The position numbers were made by a program. A stretch of DNA of 64,000 nt from Candidatus Woesearchaeota archaeon. GTDB taxonomy: Archaea > Nanobdellota > Nanobdellia > SCGC-AAA011-G17 > GW2011-AR18. The DNA is taken from positions 11,081 to 75,080 of the forward strand of contig JAGVZG010000003.1 in assembly GCA_018302765.1 (NCBI GenBank), written 5' to 3'. Within the stretch, counting starts at the first letter, position 1, and each line of letters starts with the position of its first letter. Positions 57,001 through 63,000 of this stretch are shown here, piece after piece.

Positions 57001-60000
57001 ATCATAATGTGTATAAAATAAATCAACATCTTTTTTTTTCATTGATTTAAATTCCTTCAAAATCTTAAAAGCATATTCCCTACTCGGATTAAAAGAATTG
57101 AACATTGCTACTTTCATAACACAACTTAAAATAATAACTTATATAAAAGTTATGAATAAACAAAAAATATGAAAATTGGATTTGTTGTAACTTATTTTTA
57201 TCCATTCAAAGATGGCACTGAAAATAATTGTTTATACCTAGCCAGAGAGTTAGCTAAAAAGCATGAAGTTCATATTTTTACATCTGACAGAAGAGAAGGA
57301 GTAGTTGTAGAAAATAAAGAGGAAGAATTTCAAGGCTTGCATATTCATAGATGCAGAACAATATTCAGATATAGATATTACATGGTATTTGATATTGATT
57401 TCATTCCAAAGATAATGAAATACAAATTTGATATACTTCATGTTCATAGTATTGGTTTTCTACAGCAAGATATCGCAGTTGTATTAAAAAAGATATTTAC
57501 GAACACAAAAATAGTTAACACACCACACGGCCCTTTCTTGGCAAATGAAAATTACTCCATTCCTATAAAGATTGCAAGAACAATATACAAGTTAATAGAA
57601 TACCCAATAAATCATTTCTTTTATGATGCTTCTATAGATGTCAATTCTACACAAAAAATTTGGATGGTAGAATACGGTTTTAAAGAAAATAAAATAAAAT
57701 TTAATCCTGATGGTGTGCCTAAAGACAGGCTTAGAAAAATAGAAAACAAAGAATTCATAAAAAAATATAATCTAAAAAACAAATTTGTAATTTCATCATT
57801 AGGGAGACTATTGCCATACAAAGGTTTTGATCAGATTATAAAAGCCCTACCATCAATAACAAAAAAGCATCCAAATGTTTTATATTTATGCATGGGTGAC
57901 GACAGGGGGGATCTAAAAAGACTAAAATCTCTGGTAAAAGAAAACAAAGTTGAAAAATATATTTTATTCTTAGGTGAAGTTTCAGAAGATGATAAATTAA
58001 AAGCCTTGGATGCATCAGAAATATTTCTATTTCCAAGCGAGCCAGGAACAGAAGCATTTGGCATAGTAACACTTGAAGCCATGCTCAGGAAAAATGCAGT
58101 AGTTGCAAGTAATACTGAAGGAAGTTTATTTTTAATAGAAAAAGACAACGGCTTTATATTTAATTATGGAAATACAGAAAAATTAGCAGAGTATGTAAAT
58201 CTGCTAATTGAAAATGAAAAATTAAGAAAAAGTATGCAAGAAACAAACTATAATAAAGCTAAAAATTACATAAATGAAAACATAGCTTGGGATCCACTAG
58301 AAAAAATTTACTTAGAAGTCCTAAACAAAAAATAATTATTTGTAACTATGATTAACAGAAGCAATACACTCATTGCAGTTCTTTTCAACACAGCCTTTGT
58401 AAGTAAGCTTGTTCTTTACACTCCATTGCTTAACAGTATTAAATATTAACATTAAATCATTTCCTTTTTCTGTCATAGAATATCGAACATTAATTGGTTT
58501 TTCCTTAATCACTTGCCTAGAAACAAGGCCTTTATTTACAAGTTCACGCAGCCTATATGATAAAATCCTGTTTGTTGATACTTTTAATTTCTTGTTAAGC
58601 TGGTTAAAATTAAGTACTTTATTAAAATATAATTCCTGCATGATTAAGATTGTCCATTTTTTGCCCAATAAATTCTGAATTTGAAATAATTCACATGTCA
58701 TAAGTATAAAAAAGTATACTTAATTTATAAATATTGCTTATTACCGTTTGCTTTCTATATGGAAAAAGGATTAAGTGTTTTAAGAGAAGTTCCTCAGTGC
58801 AAAGTACCAATAACTCCAGAATTGGAAAAATTGCTTCATCCAGATCTATTTATGAAAGAACCAATATTTACAAGAAGATTAACGCCTCCAGAAGAAGGAG
58901 AAAAAGTCTATGCATTAACTCCAGAAGATATAAAGGGTATAAGAAACTTAAGAGGTTCTGTTGTTGATCTGCATCCAGGAATGGGTGGTGTAGCTCCAGA
59001 AAGAATCATTGGTATGATAGAAAGTGGAACTAAACTAACATCCCTAGATTTCATGCTGACTAAAAATTGTAATTTTGCGTGCACATGGTGTTTTGCTTCA
59101 TCTGGTCCAGAACAAAGAGAATACTTGCCATTTAGAATTCTAGAATCAACTACAAAAGAAGCTGTTGAACTTGGCGCAACACTTTTTGTGCTTACAGGCG
59201 GTGAGCCGCTAATGTATAAAGATAAAGAATTAGGATCTCAAAGAAGCAGAGGAGATCATTTCTTTAGAGTTGTTGAAATGATAAGAAAAACTGGAAGGCC
59301 TTATGGAAAAGAAATTAAAATTTTAACTTTTGATGATGTAGCATTAATAACTCCAGAAATAGCAAACAGATTTGCTGAGAATGAAGTAGGTTTGTGTACA
59401 AAAGGAGATACATTAGAAGCAGAATTACAAGACTACAAAGTAAATCAAACTAGGGCATTTGATAAAATGCAGCAAGGTTACAGAAATCTAATTAACGTTG
59501 GTTATGGAAAAACTAAAAAACTTAGACTTGTAGTTAATTCTGTATTAGATCATACAACATTTGATGGAATGCTTGATCTACATATTTGGGTAACAGATAG
59601 AGGTTTTGATCATTCTATTGTTCCAGTACATTATTGCGGAAATGCAGAAAATGAAGACCAAGAAGCAGGTATACATTCCCCTCATGTTAAAGTATTATAT
59701 GATCTAATTGCAAGAGTAGATGAAAAATTATATGATATAAAATGGAAGCCATGGGCAGCATTTACTTATAATAAAACATGTAACAGAAACAGATCTGGTC
59801 TTCATATAAGAGCAAATGGTGATGTAACAGCCTGTTCAGAATCTCCAGGTAGAGAAGCAACAGATCGATATACTTTTGGAAACGTATTAGAAAGTGGATT
59901 TTCCTTAAAAGACCTTGTTGATAGTGAAAGATTAAGAAAATATAGAAAAGAATTTGCACAAGGCCATGGTACATATGTTTGCTCGCCTGATGTCTGTGAC

Positions 60001-63000
60001 TTATATGCTAACAACCTATGTCAAGGTGGATGCGCTACAAGATCAGCATACTCAAGAGTAGACTACAATACTGGATTAATAACAAAAAATGATGATCCTC
60101 ATAGTTATAGTGAACACAGAGAAGATCCTCTTTGCCCAGCATGGACTGTATTAGCTATAAAACAAGGAATACTCAGAGAAGGTTTATTGGAAGAAATACA
60201 CAATAGGATACTAAGAAAAAGCAAAAGAATTGATCCTAAAGAATTTCCCTTTGAAGCCTTAAATTACTGAAATCCTACAAAAACAATATACTAATAGGTA
60301 GTAAAAATAAAAAAGACCAAAAGTTCACAAATTTTATAAGCCATTCTTTTACATTTAAATGTAGAAAATTACTGTTTTTAGATAAATAAGGCATAATAAA
60401 AGAAGCAAATCAAAAACAATAGTTAATTGAAATAAAATGAAACTATTTATCAATACTGGTGGAAAAGGAACAAGATTGTATCCATTAACAAAAGATATAC
60501 CAAAACCAATGGTAAATATATGTGGAAAACCAATACTACACTATCTAGTAGACTGGGCCAAAAATAATAACATAAAAGAAATTATTATGATGAATGGTTA
60601 TAAAGCAGAAAAAGTAATAGAATACTTCAAAGACGGAAAAGAATTTGAAATTGATATAAAACATTCAAATGAACCACAGCCATTAGGAAGTGGGGGTGCA
60701 ATAAAATTTGCAAAAAATTACATTGATGAAACATTTGTTTATATATCTGGCGACTTATTATGCGACATAGACTTAAAAAAAATCATAAAATTTCATAAAG
60801 AAAACAAAGGAGATATGACAATAACTTTATTTCAAACAGACCACCCACATGACTCAGACATAATTAAAATAGATAAAAACAATAAAGTAATAAAATTTAT
60901 ATCAAAACATGATAACCATGCAGGAGCAGGTAATCTATCTAACTCAGGATTATGCATAATAGAACCAAAAATAATAGAGTTAATGGATAAAGAAATATTC
61001 ACATTTGAAACAGAAATATATCCTAAAGCCATAGAGAAGAATCTAAGAATATTAGGTTACGTAACAAATGAATTTATAGAAGACATGGGAACACCAGAAC
61101 GTTTTAAAAAATGCGAGGAATACTTTAAATCAAAATGAGAATATTAGTTACAGGTGCAGGCGGAATGATGGGATGTCATATTCTAGATTTTCTTACAGAA
61201 AAAAACCATGACGTATTAGGCATAGACTTTGTTCCAACAACAGATATAAGAGAATTAAATAAAAAAGCAGTTTACATGGAGTGCGATATTAGAGATAGAA
61301 ACAAGTTAACAAATATAATAAACCTATTCAAACCAGAAGCAATATGTCACCTAGCTGCACAGAGTTATCCTACAGTATCTTGGGATAGGCCTGAATTTAC
61401 TATGGAAGTAAATGTTATAGGTACAATAAACCTCTTTGAATCTGTAAAAGAATTAAAATTAGATCCAGTGATATTAAACGCCTGCTCAAGTGCTGAATAC
61501 GGTTATATTGATGAAAAAGAAGTTCCTGTAAAAGAATCTAGAGAATTAAAACCTTTACATCCATATGGTGTAAGCAAAGTTTCGCAAGAATTATTAGCTT
61601 ATCAGTACTTTCAAAACTTCAAAATTAGGAGTATATCAGCAAGGATATTTAATACAACTGGTCCTAAAAAAATTAATGATGTTTGTTCAGATTTTACAAA
61701 ACAAATTGTTATGATAGAAAAAGGATTGCAAAAACCAGTAATGCATGTAGGAAACCTAAACACAAGAAGAGCAATCACTGATGTAAGAGATATGATAAAT
61801 GCATTCTGGCTGTTATTAGAAAAAGGAAAATATGGAGAAGCATATAATATAAGCGGAAGCAAAGCATATCTAATCAAAGACATACTAGAAATACTAAAAT
61901 CATTGACAAATGTAAAATTTGAGATTTATCAAGATCCAAAATTAATGAGACCAACAGATGAACCAATAATTTATGGAGATTCATCAAAAATAAAAGCAGA
62001 TACAGGTTGGGAGCAAAAAATACCCATAGAAAAAACACTAAAAGATATGCTTGAATATTGGAGGAAGAAATTATGACTATTATAAGAAGTAGGTCACCCC
62101 ATAGGATAGAATTTTGTGGTGGTGGGACAGACGTACCTGAATACTATAAAAAAAATGGGGGCTTTGTAATAAATGCAGCAATTAACAAATATTCATATGT
62201 AAGCCTTCACCCATATGATGAAGGTATAAAAATTACTTTAGAAAACAAAAATACTGTAGAATTTCCAAATTTAAAGAGTATAAAATTTGAAGGGGATTTT
62301 GATTTAGTAAAGGCTATAATAAAAAAATTGCAAATAAATAACAAGGAAATATTCCTAAGAAATGATATCTTACCAAGCAGTGGATTAGGGACAAATGCGG
62401 CAATTGCAACAGCAGTTATAGGAGTAATATACAAATTAAGAGAACAAACATTAGACAAAAAAGAAATAGCAGAAGCCGCTTATGAAATAGCCTCAAAAGA
62501 ATTAGGAATTTATGGAGGAAAACAAAACCAATATTCTTCAGCATTTGGAGGAATAAATTCAATAGAATTCAAAAAAGATGGAGAAGTAATAGTAACACCT
62601 CTAAAAATTAGCAAAAACACATTAAGAGAACTGGAAAAGCACCTAGTCTTAGTTTATGTAGGAAAAAGAATAAACCCAAATGAAATACTAAAAAAACAAG
62701 AAAAAGAAAGTCTGCAAAATAATAAATTAGAAGATCTAGATAAACTAAAATATATTGCAATGGAAATGAAAGATGTTCTGGAAAGTGGAGACACAATAAA
62801 ATTTGGAAAACTAATGGATAAAGCATGGAACATAAAAAAAGTATTTAATCCGAATATTTCAACACAATATATAGAACACATATATGAAATAGCAAAAAAA
62901 AATGGAGCAATAGGTGGAATGATAAATGGTGCTGGTGGGGGTGGTCATATACTATTTTACGCTGAACCAAATAAAGAACCGCTGCTTGTAAGAAAACTTC

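Follow-up and report, generated by a model that had tools for sequence, protein, structure and literature searches.

The 64,000 nucleotides of woesearchaeotal DNA analysed here (referred to in full as the window) contain a divergent gene pair, an HxlR-family regulator and a radical SAM (rSAM)/SPASM enzyme, separated by 57 bp. An earlier note on the sequence had described this arrangement, and it was confirmed by ORFs and Pfam domains. The region comprises the following features:

58336..58701, minus strand: HxlR-family winged-helix regulator, 121 aa (PF01638 at 74.7 bits, E=5e-21)
58702-58758: HxlR-rSAM divergent intergenic region, 57 bp
58702..58721, no strand: putative operator palindrome AAGTAT-N8-ATACTT, abutting the HxlR start codon (family consensus ARGTAY-N8-RTACYT)
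58724..58735, no strand: shared AT-rich TATA box TTTATAAATATT, as read from the sequence, ~29 nt from each start codon
58759..60270, plus strand: radical SAM/SPASM enzyme, 503 aa (exact protein MBS3152113.1, 'radical SAM protein [Ca. Woesearchaeota archaeon]')
58759..59040, plus strand: N-terminal extension specific to this family (residues 1-94; 50/50 aligned homologues conserve it)
58972-58989: invariant flexible loop HPGMGG within this extension
59068..59091, plus strand: CX3CX2C radical SAM cluster motif (C104, C108, C111; invariant alignment columns)
59779..60135, plus strand: SPASM region, C341-X12-G-X4-C359, C408-X4-C413-X7-C421-X3-C425, C459
60437..61138, plus strand: nucleotidyltransferase directly 3' of the rSAM gene (PF00483, E=7e-33)

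Both rSAM domain matches exceed their cut-offs (PF04055, 37.3 bits versus 29.5; PF13186 SPASM, 29.7 bits versus 21.5). The N-terminal extension of ~95 aa, already noticed previously, is real: the CX3CX2C motif starts at C104, and the family alignment shows conservation over residues ~10-94. In the AF2 model the extension is predicted to form helices (residues 20-26, 55-67 and 80-88) and no beta-sheet, with pLDDT below 50 at residues 73-77. Together with C213 and C293, which lie upstream of the SPASM region and are likewise invariant, the homologue alignment contains twelve invariant cysteines. The earlier note had named two findings that would speak against it, loss of the SPASM auxiliary-cluster cysteines and placement in a tRNA/rRNA-modifying rSAM clade; all these cysteines are present and the protein lies outside such a clade, therefore neither objection holds. 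The protein is best explained as a cobalamin-independent enzyme with a full SPASM domain and three [4Fe-4S] clusters. The structures nearest to it are anSME, SuiB, ChlB, BlsE (20% identity) and MoaA.

The family is tight (mean column identity 62%), with ~3 full-length clusters at 50% identity among 1.84 billion representatives, and search scores fall from 294 to about 140 bits beyond it. It comprises three sequence clades (57-78% identity in two, 41-52% in the third), hosted by Woesearchaeota, Nanoarchaeia, CPR, Scalindua, Omnitrophota, Phycisphaerae, Deltaproteobacteria and marine Gammaproteobacteria. No homologue with known function was found for the family. The rSAM is the best-conserved protein of its clusters, a level of conservation that would fit a fixed small substrate.

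The regulator carries Cys3 near its N-terminus and a C-terminal CX4CX2C motif; these four cysteines are kept without exception in the 7/7 orthologues that pair with the rSAM. Its nearest solved structures are YodB, YdzF, QsrR, HypR (YybR) and HxlR (7bze). With YodB, QsrR, HypR and HxlR (DUF24/HxlR family; thiol- or aldehyde-sensing) it shares the PF01638 winged helix, the N-terminal cysteine at the usual spacing before the GKKW motif and, apparently, a palindromic operator and divergent pairing with the regulated gene. Unlike them, it has an archaeal promoter in which the operator is flush with the regulator's own start codon and the TATA box is shared, and it adds the invariant CX4CX2C, which to our knowledge is undescribed for characterised HxlR-family members.

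The AGTATA-N6-TATACT repeat (58703-58720) and the TATA-like box reported earlier are present and recur in related HxlR-rSAM pairs, the repeat being part of the larger symmetric element. The consensus ARGTAY-N8-RTACYT occurs once in the window (0.08 expected) and seven times in 1.26 Mb of related loci, where six occurrences fall into HxlR-rSAM intergenic regions and the remaining one lies upstream of the rSAM gene in L041. Its position is the same in L010/L053, L011, L016, L060 and L061 and, with mismatches, in L066; L060 and L061 were retrieved only after the pattern had been fixed. In 7/7 independent pairs found, the element abuts both the HxlR start codon and the shared TATA-like box, which is kept as TTTAWAAATATT in 7/7 intergenic regions. 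Because of the similar distance of this box to both start codons, two leaderless or near-leaderless divergent transcripts would be expected. We propose that in the archaeal versions, including the window, a dedicated HxlR-type thiol-based and possibly metal-binding sensor controls the rSAM gene. Bound between its own start site and the shared TATA box, this sensor would act as an autorepressor and would also gate transcription towards the rSAM or steer it there, with an electrophile, an aldehyde or a redox signal as the trigger. Such a regulator accompanies the rSAM in only 7/72 non-redundant groups, which counts against the overall reading proposed below.

Upstream of the rSAM gene by 27 kb, the window has its own phosphonate operon (PepM-MpnS-Ppd-PhpC, 27300-32670), which the earlier note had missed. 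It is listed here with the gene that follows it:

30928..32670, minus strand: PEP mutase (PepM) fused to a LicC/PntC-like NTP_transf_3 domain (PF13714, E=1e-46; PF12804, E=4e-9)
29586..31007, minus strand: methylphosphonate synthase (MpnS; 6b9s N. maritimus MpnS, E=2e-128, versus HepD 6b9r, E=2e-83)
28442..29584, minus strand: phosphonopyruvate decarboxylase (Ppd), a TPP enzyme (PF02775/PF02776) orthologous to Ppd of related clusters
27300..28445, minus strand: Fe-dependent alcohol dehydrogenase (Fe-ADH; PF00465/PF25137), a PhpC-like phosphonoacetaldehyde reductase forming 2-hydroxyethylphosphonate (HEP)
26533..27246, minus strand: CDP-alcohol phosphatidyltransferase-like protein (PF01066), recurring in L007, L008, L011, L016 and L038

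The PepM fusion matches PDB 5unc (E=3.5e-45) and LicC 1jyk (E=9e-6). For the window MpnS, translation probably begins at Met30 (near 30920); its H/Q/H ligand and Phe/Ile positions agree with MpnS and not with HepD. The CDP-alcohol phosphatidyltransferase-like protein is a candidate transferase for a CMP-activated phosphonate. The nucleotidyltransferase behind the rSAM gene is 30-34% identical to the rSAM-adjoining NTP-transferases of L021 and L017 and may act on a sugar-1-phosphate or a phosphonate. Direct rSAM neighbours in the window and in L001/L002 form a heptose-type set: three GT4 glycosyltransferases, an NTP-transferase, a GDP-mannose-dehydratase-like SDR, a GHMP kinase and a SIS-GHMP fusion. 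The window also contains AglB (50505-53144) and a separate B12-rSAM (22143-23579).

PepM, Ppd or Fe-ADH was found within 10 kb of the rSAM in 34 of the 44 non-redundant related loci that have 8 kb or more of flank (Fe-ADH 33, PepM 28, NTP-transferase 27, Ppd 23, MpnS-like 17, APS-kinase-like 14). The family thus lies almost always in clusters for decorating cell-surface glycans with 2-hydroxyethyl- and methylphosphonate. This association is present in all three clades, from 41% to 78% identity. A same-strand Fe-ADH is the commonest direct neighbour (18 non-redundant groups), and the rSAM often adjoins methylphosphonate synthase and cytidylyltransferases. In the natural fusion P0286 a LicC-like cytidylyltransferase (1jyk, E=4e-13) lies N-terminal to the rSAM and Fe-ADH precedes it. 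The NTP-transferase gene runs into the start of the rSAM gene in L084, L086 and L089. A short HppE/MpnS-like cupin is part of the cluster in L018, L020, L011 and L012.

This context suggests what the substrate and chemistry might be. We tentatively favour, at slightly less than an even chance, an HxlR-controlled, cobalamin-free enzyme that tailors HEP or cytidylyl-HEP. PEP mutase and phosphonopyruvate decarboxylase would supply phosphonoacetaldehyde, Fe-ADH would reduce it to HEP, and the LicC/PntC-type cytidylyltransferase would convert HEP to CMP-HEP. The rSAM would then abstract a hydrogen atom from the hydroxyethyl chain, the electron leaving via the two auxiliary clusters, in a two-electron oxidation or a rearrangement; the simplest precedent would be -CH2OH to -CHO, as in anSME and BtrN. 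Finally, a transferase would put the tailored nucleotide-activated phosphonate onto a surface glycan, probably N-linked, its type varying by cluster (CDP-alcohol-transferase-, TagF-, sulfatase- or sulfotransferase-like). Since tailoring would follow cytidylylation, the rSAM would sit at the Fom3 position of the fosfomycin pathway, though as another rSAM class. In Streptomyces, CMP-HEP is produced by the Fom1 CyTase and serves the rSAM Fom3 as its substrate (PMC6697681; reference 39 of PMC9204698). As with Fom3 (together with Fom1 CyTase and FomC), the rSAM is clustered with a PepM-cytidylyltransferase fusion, Ppd and Fe-ADH, and it would likewise act after HEP formation and cytidylylation. However, Fom3 belongs to class B, carries a cobalamin domain at its N-terminus and methylates C2, whereas the window rSAM lacks a B12 domain and has the unique helical extension, a C-terminal SPASM domain and two auxiliary clusters; the rSAM core is the only sequence relation.

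With MpnS and HepD, non-haem iron HEP oxygenases of an unrelated bicupin fold, the rSAM shares genomic company and probably the same HEP pool; they are O2-dependent, whereas the rSAM would be O2-sensitive and SAM-dependent. Several observations count against the HEP assignment. MpnS, which uses free HEP, is encoded in half of the clusters as well, and the rSAM would have to compete with it or work alongside it. Re-oxidation straight after reduction by PhpC has no obvious purpose, and the window PepM motif is EDQVWPKRNS instead of the canonical EDKxxxxxNS. Moreover, the window rSAM lies away from the phosphonate operon amid sugar-nucleotide genes, and 10/44 loci have no phosphonate gene within 10 kb, among them the closest relative L001 (78% identity; heptose-type sugar genes), L003 (rSAM adjoining ilvD) and L019 (adjoining moaA).

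An O2-independent methylphosphonate (MPn) route is an unlikely alternative, in which the rSAM, as the anaerobic counterpart of O2-dependent MpnS, would cleave C1-C2 of HEP or CMP-HEP to MPn or CMP-MPn plus formaldehyde or formate. By electron count, splitting HEP into MPn and CH2O is redox neutral; with formate as the second product the reaction becomes a two-electron oxidation, which would suit the auxiliary clusters. The HxlR-type sensor would switch the rSAM on under anoxia or reduction, or answer the aldehyde by-product; B. subtilis HxlR, among the regulator's solved relatives, is a formaldehyde sensor. The window rSAM stands apart from the mpnS operon under its own redox/electrophile-type regulator, an arrangement resembling conditionally expressed O2-independent isoenzymes, and many hosts (Scalindua, Omnitrophota, DPANN and CPR) belong to lineages generally held to be anaerobic. 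No MpnS-like gene occurs in 17/34 phosphonate-positive loci, where the rSAM fills the slot after Fe-ADH, for example in L021/L063/L064 (order PepM-Ppd-FeADH-rSAM-NTP-APSk), L014, L009/L037 and the Scalindua-type loci. But the other 17 contain both genes, often adjacent (L007, L008, L035, L055, L058, L082), a placement rare for redundant isoenzymes, and the rSAM is neither correlated nor anticorrelated with MpnS. Such a route does not specifically account for the cytidylyltransferase fusion, and we know of no precedent for HEP-type C-C scission by a SPASM enzyme.

Similarly improbable is a sugar- or glycan-modifying rSAM that would, for instance, epimerise, dehydrogenate or deoxygenate a nucleotide sugar or the lipid-linked glycan, and would travel with phosphonoglycan clusters only as preparer of the acceptor sugar. 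The heptose-type neighbours, the loci with no phosphonate gene nearby and the embedding of all clusters in glycan islands (with AglB in the window) are in line with this, and so is BlsE, which has the top identity among the nearest structures and whose substrate is a cytosine nucleoside sugar acid. However, acceptor glycans and transferases vary widely between clusters while the rSAM stays conserved. The steady neighbours are Fe-ADH, PepM, Ppd and a LicC-type (small phospho-alcohol) cytidylyltransferase and include no sugar enzyme, and the fusion partner resembles LicC more closely than a sugar-1-phosphate transferase.

The earlier note had favoured a maturase of proteins or peptides whose target, perhaps a surface protein or glycan-processing enzyme, is encoded elsewhere. 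Such an enzyme would be of the anSME, QhpD or sactisynthase kind, and its target could be a sulfatase-fold phosphonate transferase needing formylglycine or a pathway enzyme such as Fe-ADH. The best structural matches (anSME, SuiB, ChlB, TigE, SkfB, CteB) do modify proteins or peptides, the weak top NCBIfam matches are sacti- and ranthipeptide maturases, and sulfatase-family genes occur in 6/44 loci, including L013, L020, L035 and L055. Yet a protein or peptide is probably not the substrate, and we regard a maturase as very unlikely, given the HEP/MPn clusters, the cytidylyltransferase fusion, curated models far below cut-off (anSME TIGR03942, 28 bits versus 349; StsB, 42 versus 625; PapB, 37 versus 340), an extension with no wHTH in its predicted fold and no PqqD/RRE Pfam match, and a degree of conservation that would be unusual if the enzyme co-evolved with a protein substrate. 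The window rSAM is only 15% identical to anSME, differs from anSME and BtrN (SPASM/twitch dehydrogenases) in cysteine spacing (CX4CX7CX3C versus CX2CX5CX3C) and in its additional N-terminal domain of 95 aa, and has no sulfatase partner. The note had seen no obvious sulfatase or precursor-peptide gene beside the rSAM. The ORFs scanned in the window yielded no sulfatase (PF00884), and small ORFs adjoining the rSAM are not conserved; all recurrent ones were alternative-frame shadows of neighbours. The note's observation is confirmed and its interpretation partly supported: the domain calls and the HxlR pairing with its operator hold, the proposed function is not supported. In L013, the sulfatase already has a separate, shorter SPASM rSAM alongside.

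The earlier note had described an HxlR regulator (HxlR) in a divergent pair with a radical SAM/SPASM enzyme (rSAM) thought to modify proteins or peptides. Both open reading frames were recovered as given there, 57 bp apart, in a window of ~30% G+C:

58759-60270, plus strand: rSAM gene, 503 aa; PF04055 at 37.3 bits and PF13186 (SPASM) at 29.7 bits (cut-off 21.5), both above the Pfam cut-offs
58336-58701, minus strand: HxlR gene, 121 aa; PF01638 at 74.7 bits (cut-off 20.8)

The rSAM protein is identical to a deposited 'radical SAM protein [Candidatus Woesearchaeota archaeon]', which assigns the window to a DPANN archaeon. 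It has the CX3CX2C motif that defines the superfamily (SAM-cleaving [4Fe-4S] cluster, partial TIM barrel). When 50 homologues were aligned (mean column identity 62%), twelve cysteines were invariant: C104, C108 and C111 of the SAM cluster, C213, C293, C341, C359, C408, C413, C421, C425 and C459. SPASM proteins canonically hold seven cysteines for two auxiliary clusters in the pattern CX9-15GX4C ... CX2CX5CX3C ... C. The last seven invariant cysteines of rSAM form such a SPASM pattern, CX12GX4C ... CX4CX7CX3C ... C (C341-X12-G354-X4-C359, C408-X4-C413-X7-C421-X3-C425 and C459, all invariant), with a non-canonical spacing in the middle block (CX4CX7CX3C versus CX2CX5CX3C); TIGR04085 scored 24.7 bits, slightly below its cut-off of 27. 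That is, the auxiliary-cluster cysteines, whose absence the earlier note had named as an argument against its assignment, are present throughout the alignment, and rSAM lies outside the tRNA/rRNA-modifying clades that it had named for the same reason; the families considered were MiaB/RimO, RlmN/Cfr, TYW1 and Elp3-type. The N-terminal extension of ~95 residues was confirmed as well and is conserved family-wide. In the AF2 model, residues 1-94 form three helices and no beta-sheet, and an invariant HPGMGG loop (residues 72-77, low model confidence) might serve as an anion-binding lid.

No curated NCBIfam model came near its cut-off: the best, those for sactipeptide/ranthipeptide maturases, MoaA, mycofactocin and anSME, reached 28-42 bits versus 265-625. 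In the PDB, sequence and profile searches with rSAM matched nothing beyond the cluster-binding core of ~60 residues. When 1.84 billion representative proteins (clusters at 50% identity) were searched with a profile, essentially three full-length family clusters (915, 552 and 294 bits) and fragments came back; below 294 bits the scores dropped sharply to ~140 bits, the level of generic ~360-aa radical SAM/SPASM proteins. Identity to the window protein is 57-78% for archaeal and bacterial members and 41-52% for those of a third clade. Named hosts are Woesearchaeota, Nanoarchaeia, Patescibacteria/Ryanbacteria, Acidobacteria, Armatimonadota, Omnitrophota, Scalindua, Phycisphaerae, Deltaproteobacteria, Rhodospirillaceae and Gammaproteobacteria, so that the family spans archaea, CPR bacteria, anammox bacteria and marine proteobacteria; all named homologues are annotated merely as 'radical SAM protein'. 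A 627-aa homologue (P0079) considered as a fusion turned out to be an insertion variant, and the shorter SPASM protein ('rSAM2') of three related loci (L013, L017 and L018) was rejected as nearest outgroup. A role in defence was rejected too, PADLOC giving a 60-residue match to the viperin core and nothing more; Rfam had no match in the window. The rSAM gene of one complete bacterial chromosome (OZ251221.1, 4.05 Mb; locus L015, 10001-11459) is split by a frameshift near 10545, with no phosphonate genes within 10 kb, and may be a decaying copy.

The decisive evidence for a link between rSAM and phosphonates is its genomic neighbourhood. Homologous loci were collected by scanning genome contigs with the single protein (9 loci) and metagenomes with the alignment (79 loci). 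The sample of 99 loci represents 72 non-redundant groups, and neighbourhoods were counted in the 44 groups whose flanks reach 8 kb or more. In the first loci examined, rSAM stands beside PEP mutase (PepM, in many cases a fusion with a nucleotidyltransferase), a TPP-dependent phosphonopyruvate decarboxylase (Ppd), a PhpC-like Fe-alcohol dehydrogenase (Fe-ADH) and a ~450-aa HTH/cupin protein; tblastn with these neighbours found the same gene set in the window, 27 kb upstream of rSAM. A phosphonate marker was present within 10 kb of rSAM in 34 of the 44 groups, all three clades included, and the association is solid. Within this distance we counted Fe-ADH in 33 groups, PepM in 28, NTP-transferase in 27, Ppd in 23, MpnS-like proteins in 17, APS-kinase-like proteins in 14 and B12-dependent radical SAM proteins in 12. 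The commonest direct neighbour is a same-strand Fe-ADH (18 groups), followed by divergent HxlR and PepM (7 each) and by MpnS and Ppd (6 each). Since 17 phosphonate-positive loci have MpnS and 17 do not, the role of rSAM is independent of MpnS. Ten of the 44 groups have no phosphonate gene nearby, among them the closest relative (L001), which otherwise shares the layout of the window (three GT4 genes, rSAM, SDR, GHMP kinase, SIS-GHMP, HAD and NTP-transferase) without HxlR. Absence within 10 kb is weak evidence, because the phosphonate operon of the window itself lies 27 kb off. Literature searches on radical SAM combined with phosphonate genes, SPASM or O2 independence yielded no paper describing this family. 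The nearest remark is that Campylobacter ppm-ppd clusters are flanked by 'radical SAM and adenylsulfate kinase' genes (PMC8942020); no Campylobacter protein was among the named homologues.

Some clusters show variations of this gene set. Scalindua-type loci have no canonical Ppd, and at least one (L045, 628-5475) has a split E1 alpha/beta TPP enzyme in its place, upstream of PepM; a TagF-like CDP-glycerol glycerophosphotransferase homologue is encoded there as well, hinting at a teichoic-acid-like use of CMP-activated 2-hydroxyethylphosphonate (CMP-HEP). The idea that rSAM replaces Ppd in these clusters was abandoned once the split enzyme had been found. APS-kinase-like genes adjoin rSAM in L013 (7455-8783), L021 (11606-14170) and L005 (9450-9971); in Scalindua-type loci the gene is fused to an NTP-transferase, and in L021 sulfotransferase-like genes come next. 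By analogy, such neighbours suggest a PAPS-like 3'-phospho-CMP-phosphonate donor, for which the Campylobacter phosphoramidate pathway is the comparison. One genome (GCA_040960315.1) carries two paralogous clusters (L018 and L020), each with a PepM::NTP fusion, a short (232-257 aa) HppE/MpnS-like cupin, NTP-transferase, rSAM, Ppd and Fe-ADH; their rSAM copies, 70% and 57% identical to the window protein, fall in different clades.

In the window, the phosphonate genes of this Woesearchaeota MAG form a complete methylphosphonate-type operon on the minus strand (25827-35721):

34717-35721, minus strand: GT4-family sugar-phosphate (initiating) transferase
33449-34729, minus strand: flippase
32743-33492, minus strand: GT2
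30928-32670, minus strand: PepM fused to NTP_transf_3
29586-31007, minus strand: cupin protein (MpnS)
28442-29584, minus strand: Ppd
27300-28445, minus strand: Fe-ADH
26533-27246, minus strand: CDP-alcohol phosphatidyltransferase-like gene
within 25827-35721, minus strand: methyltransferase

The cupin protein matched N. maritimus MpnS (6b9s) with E=2e-128 and HepD (6b9r) with 2e-83. Born and colleagues are said to have found in 2017 that Phe and Ile in MpnS versus Tyr and Gly in HepD discriminate the two enzymes. At the positions matching 6b9s the window protein has H, Q, F, I and H (HepD 6b9r has Y and G), that is, the 2-His-1-Gln iron site and the Phe162/Ile184 pair (N. maritimus numbering) of a methylphosphonate synthase. 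DPANN is taken as an anaerobic lineage, and an O2-dependent MpnS in such an archaeon is notable. The window PepM reads EDQVWPKRNS at residues 133-142 and, by its K to Q exchange, does not match the Ppm-specific motif EDKXXXXXNS (PMC6697681); EDK is found in 41 of the 45 PepM genes of related loci, and at the level of fold the window protein matches Ppm 5unc (E=3.5e-45). Two more radical SAM genes lie near the operon on the minus strand, one (22143-23579) for a Fom3/PhpK-like class B enzyme with PF02310 (B12-binding) and PF04055, the other (18662-20443) for a 593-aa protein with no further domain match. The glycan island has an AglB/STT3 oligosaccharyltransferase gene (879 aa, 50505-53144, minus strand) at its centre, and the phosphonate is therefore probably attached to an N-linked (S-layer or surface protein) glycan. 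This glycan is probably heavily O-substituted, because the upstream island (4037-9496 and 13983-15716) holds three SGNH/AlgX-like O-acetyltransferase-type genes and two NodU/CmcH-type carbamoyltransferase genes.

The substrate proposal draws on a natural fusion. In a 722-aa homologue (P0286, 15 member sequences; L101, 783-2951) an N-terminal nucleotidyltransferase is fused to rSAM, directly downstream of Fe-ADH. The transferase domain is closest to LicC (1jyk, E=4e-13), a CTP:phosphocholine cytidylyltransferase. In three further loci (L084, L086 and L089) the NTP-transferase is encoded separately, by a gene that shares 8-17 nt with the start of rSAM. Phosphonate-specific PntC enzymes belong to the LicC family, and on the fosfomycin pathway Fom1 makes CMP-HEP from HEP with its cytidylyltransferase domain (both PMC6697681); according to the way PMC9204698 cites Sato et al. 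2017 (its reference 39), CMP-HEP is the substrate recognised by the radical SAM enzyme Fom3. Since the order Fe-ADH, cytidylyltransferase, rSAM parallels the fosfomycin pathway, we tentatively place rSAM in a phosphonate pathway with CMP-HEP (or HEP) as its possible substrate, an analogy built on the Fe-ADH adjacency, the P0286 fusion and the overlapping NTP-transferase genes. Backed by a natural fusion, this hypothesis is concrete and testable. The enzyme would abstract a hydrogen from the hydroxyethyl chain of CMP-HEP (or HEP), and the substrate radical would then be oxidised via the auxiliary clusters, the simplest product being an aldehyde (-CH2OH to -CHO) as with anSME; the tailored head group would afterwards be moved onto a glycan. 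In the SPASM enzymes characterised so far, two auxiliary clusters usually mean a net two-electron oxidation of the substrate radical. We put forward this specific reaction, hydrogen abstraction followed by oxidation, with considerable doubt.

A rival explanation, which we consider improbable, makes the family an O2-independent former of methylphosphonate, a C1-C2 lyase/oxidase that would cleave HEP or CMP-HEP oxidatively or neutrally. Clusters without MpnS place rSAM after Fe-ADH and the host lineages are mostly regarded as anaerobic, as this explanation would have it, but rSAM and MpnS coexist in 17 loci and are often adjacent. To our knowledge, the HEP-processing enzymes described so far (MpnS, HepD, HppE and DhpA) all need O2 or peroxide. 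If the rival were true, methylphosphonate esters would arise without O2 in anaerobic or microaerophilic groups (DPANN, CPR, anammox Scalindua, Omnitrophota), and in archaea a dedicated Cys-rich HxlR sensor of redox state or aldehydes would switch the enzyme. The family is a sign either of a phosphonate head group not yet described for cell-surface glycans or of O2-independent HEP processing, and either outcome would alter which organisms and habitats count as phosphonate sources. In the sea, a large part of the dissolved organic phosphorus is phosphonate, and aerobic methane formation in the ocean is accepted to start from methylphosphonate.

Fom3 is, as far as we know, the one radical SAM enzyme on the HEP route, and it needs cobalamin. 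The two enzymes would be alike in their position in the pathway but differ in that rSAM has no N-terminal B12-binding domain (PF02310 absent in the Pfam search), the mark of class B, and Fom3-type methylation is therefore unlikely. With anSME and BtrN, rSAM shares the fold and likely the redox logic, whereas it differs from anSME in score and in having no sulfatase partner among the window ORFs searched, and from RiPP maturases in score and partner. It is a bona fide radical SAM/SPASM protein and a member of none of the Fom3, anSME and BtrN families; superfamily and type of pathway are known, the family itself is undescribed and highly conserved, and its chemistry we infer.

The reading of rSAM as a protein or peptide maturase was not supported. 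A mark of RiPP maturases is an N-terminal RRE (RiPP recognition element), a PqqD-like winged helix-turn-helix with a beta-sheet. Pfam gave no PqqD/RRE match on rSAM, and the N-terminal extension is unlike such an element because it is helical without sheet in the AF2 model. No conserved intergenic family that could be an adjacent precursor-peptide gene emerged when the 1556 small ORFs within 1.2 kb of rSAM in the 99 loci were clustered; all recurrent clusters were alternative-frame shadows of the Fe-ADH, NTP-transferase, PepM or Ppd genes. Curated models of RiPP radical SAM/SPASM maturases (sacti-/ranthipeptide, PqqE, MftC and SuiB type) all scored far below their cut-offs, as did the anSME model TIGR03942 (28.1 bits versus 349.45). 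The earlier note had seen no sulfatase gene nearby, and indeed no PF00884 protein turned up in the scanned ORFs of the window; a sulfatase-family gene occurs in 6 of the 44 related loci, accompanied in L013 by a different, shorter SPASM protein. Moreover, rSAM is among the most conserved proteins of its clusters (in the same loci, PepM shows 45-60%, Ppd 37-56%, Fe-ADH 34-47% and MpnS 33-53% identity), which speaks against a substrate that is a peptide or protein. The idea of a radical C-P lyase that splits HEP into acetaldehyde and phosphite was rejected as unlikely in a biosynthetic cluster.

The regulator belongs to the HxlR/DUF24 family by its winged helix (PF01638), and its closest solved relatives are YodB (E=1.4e-12), YdzF, QsrR, HypR (YybR) and HxlR (7bze, E=3.8e-9). 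Characterised YodB-, QsrR-, HypR- and HxlR-type relatives are thiol- or aldehyde-sensing regulators with N-terminal sensing cysteines (C6 in YodB, C5 in QsrR, C11 in HxlR). The divergent HxlR-rSAM pair is found in seven non-redundant groups (the window, L010/L053, L011, L016, L060, L061 and L066), from which the orthologues were drawn as part of the collected rSAM loci. The other HxlR proteins are just 38-51% identical to that of the window. Cys3, which lies 10 residues before GKKW and by this spacing may correspond to the known sensing cysteines, is invariant in 7 of 7 orthologues, as is a C-terminal CX4CX2C (window, L010, L011, L016, L060, L061 and L066). We know of no such C-terminal motif in characterised HxlR/DUF24 regulators. 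With four conserved cysteines, the regulator may work as a thiol switch or hold a metal (Zn) or Fe-S centre.

The 57-bp divergent region contains the repeat AGTATA-N6-TATACT reported by the earlier note, within a longer AAGTAT-N8-ATACTT (58702-58721), and 3' of it the TATA-like box TTTATAAATATT (58724-58735). All seven pairs keep the layout of HxlR start codon, ARGTAY-N8-RTACYT, 2-4 nt, TTTAWAAATATT, 20-30 nt and rSAM start codon. The operator pattern was defined on four loci; it then matched in L060 and L061, both collected later, and nearly so in L066. It occurs once in the window versus 0.08 expected, and over 1.26 Mb of loci it has a single match outside the HxlR-rSAM intergenic regions, at the end of PepM in L041 (4222-4241), 220 nt upstream of an rSAM without adjacent HxlR. 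Since the TATA element lies ~29 nt from both start codons, we infer a single shared TATA box serving two leaderless or near-leaderless transcripts. The predicted operator spans -1 to -20 of the hxlR promoter and adjoins the upstream side of the TATA/BRE of the rSAM promoter. This geometry suggests autorepression of hxlR, and for rSAM possibly activation or a switch of direction. With its operator, HxlR would be a clean archaeal system in which to study how thiol-based sensing works at a TATA box shared by two genes. The 166 bp that separate the rSAM stop codon from the nucleotidyltransferase gene downstream contain a perfect 14-bp palindrome, TACATTTAAATGTA (60350-60363); it occurs once in the window versus 0.14 expected and may act as a terminator stem or as a second operator.
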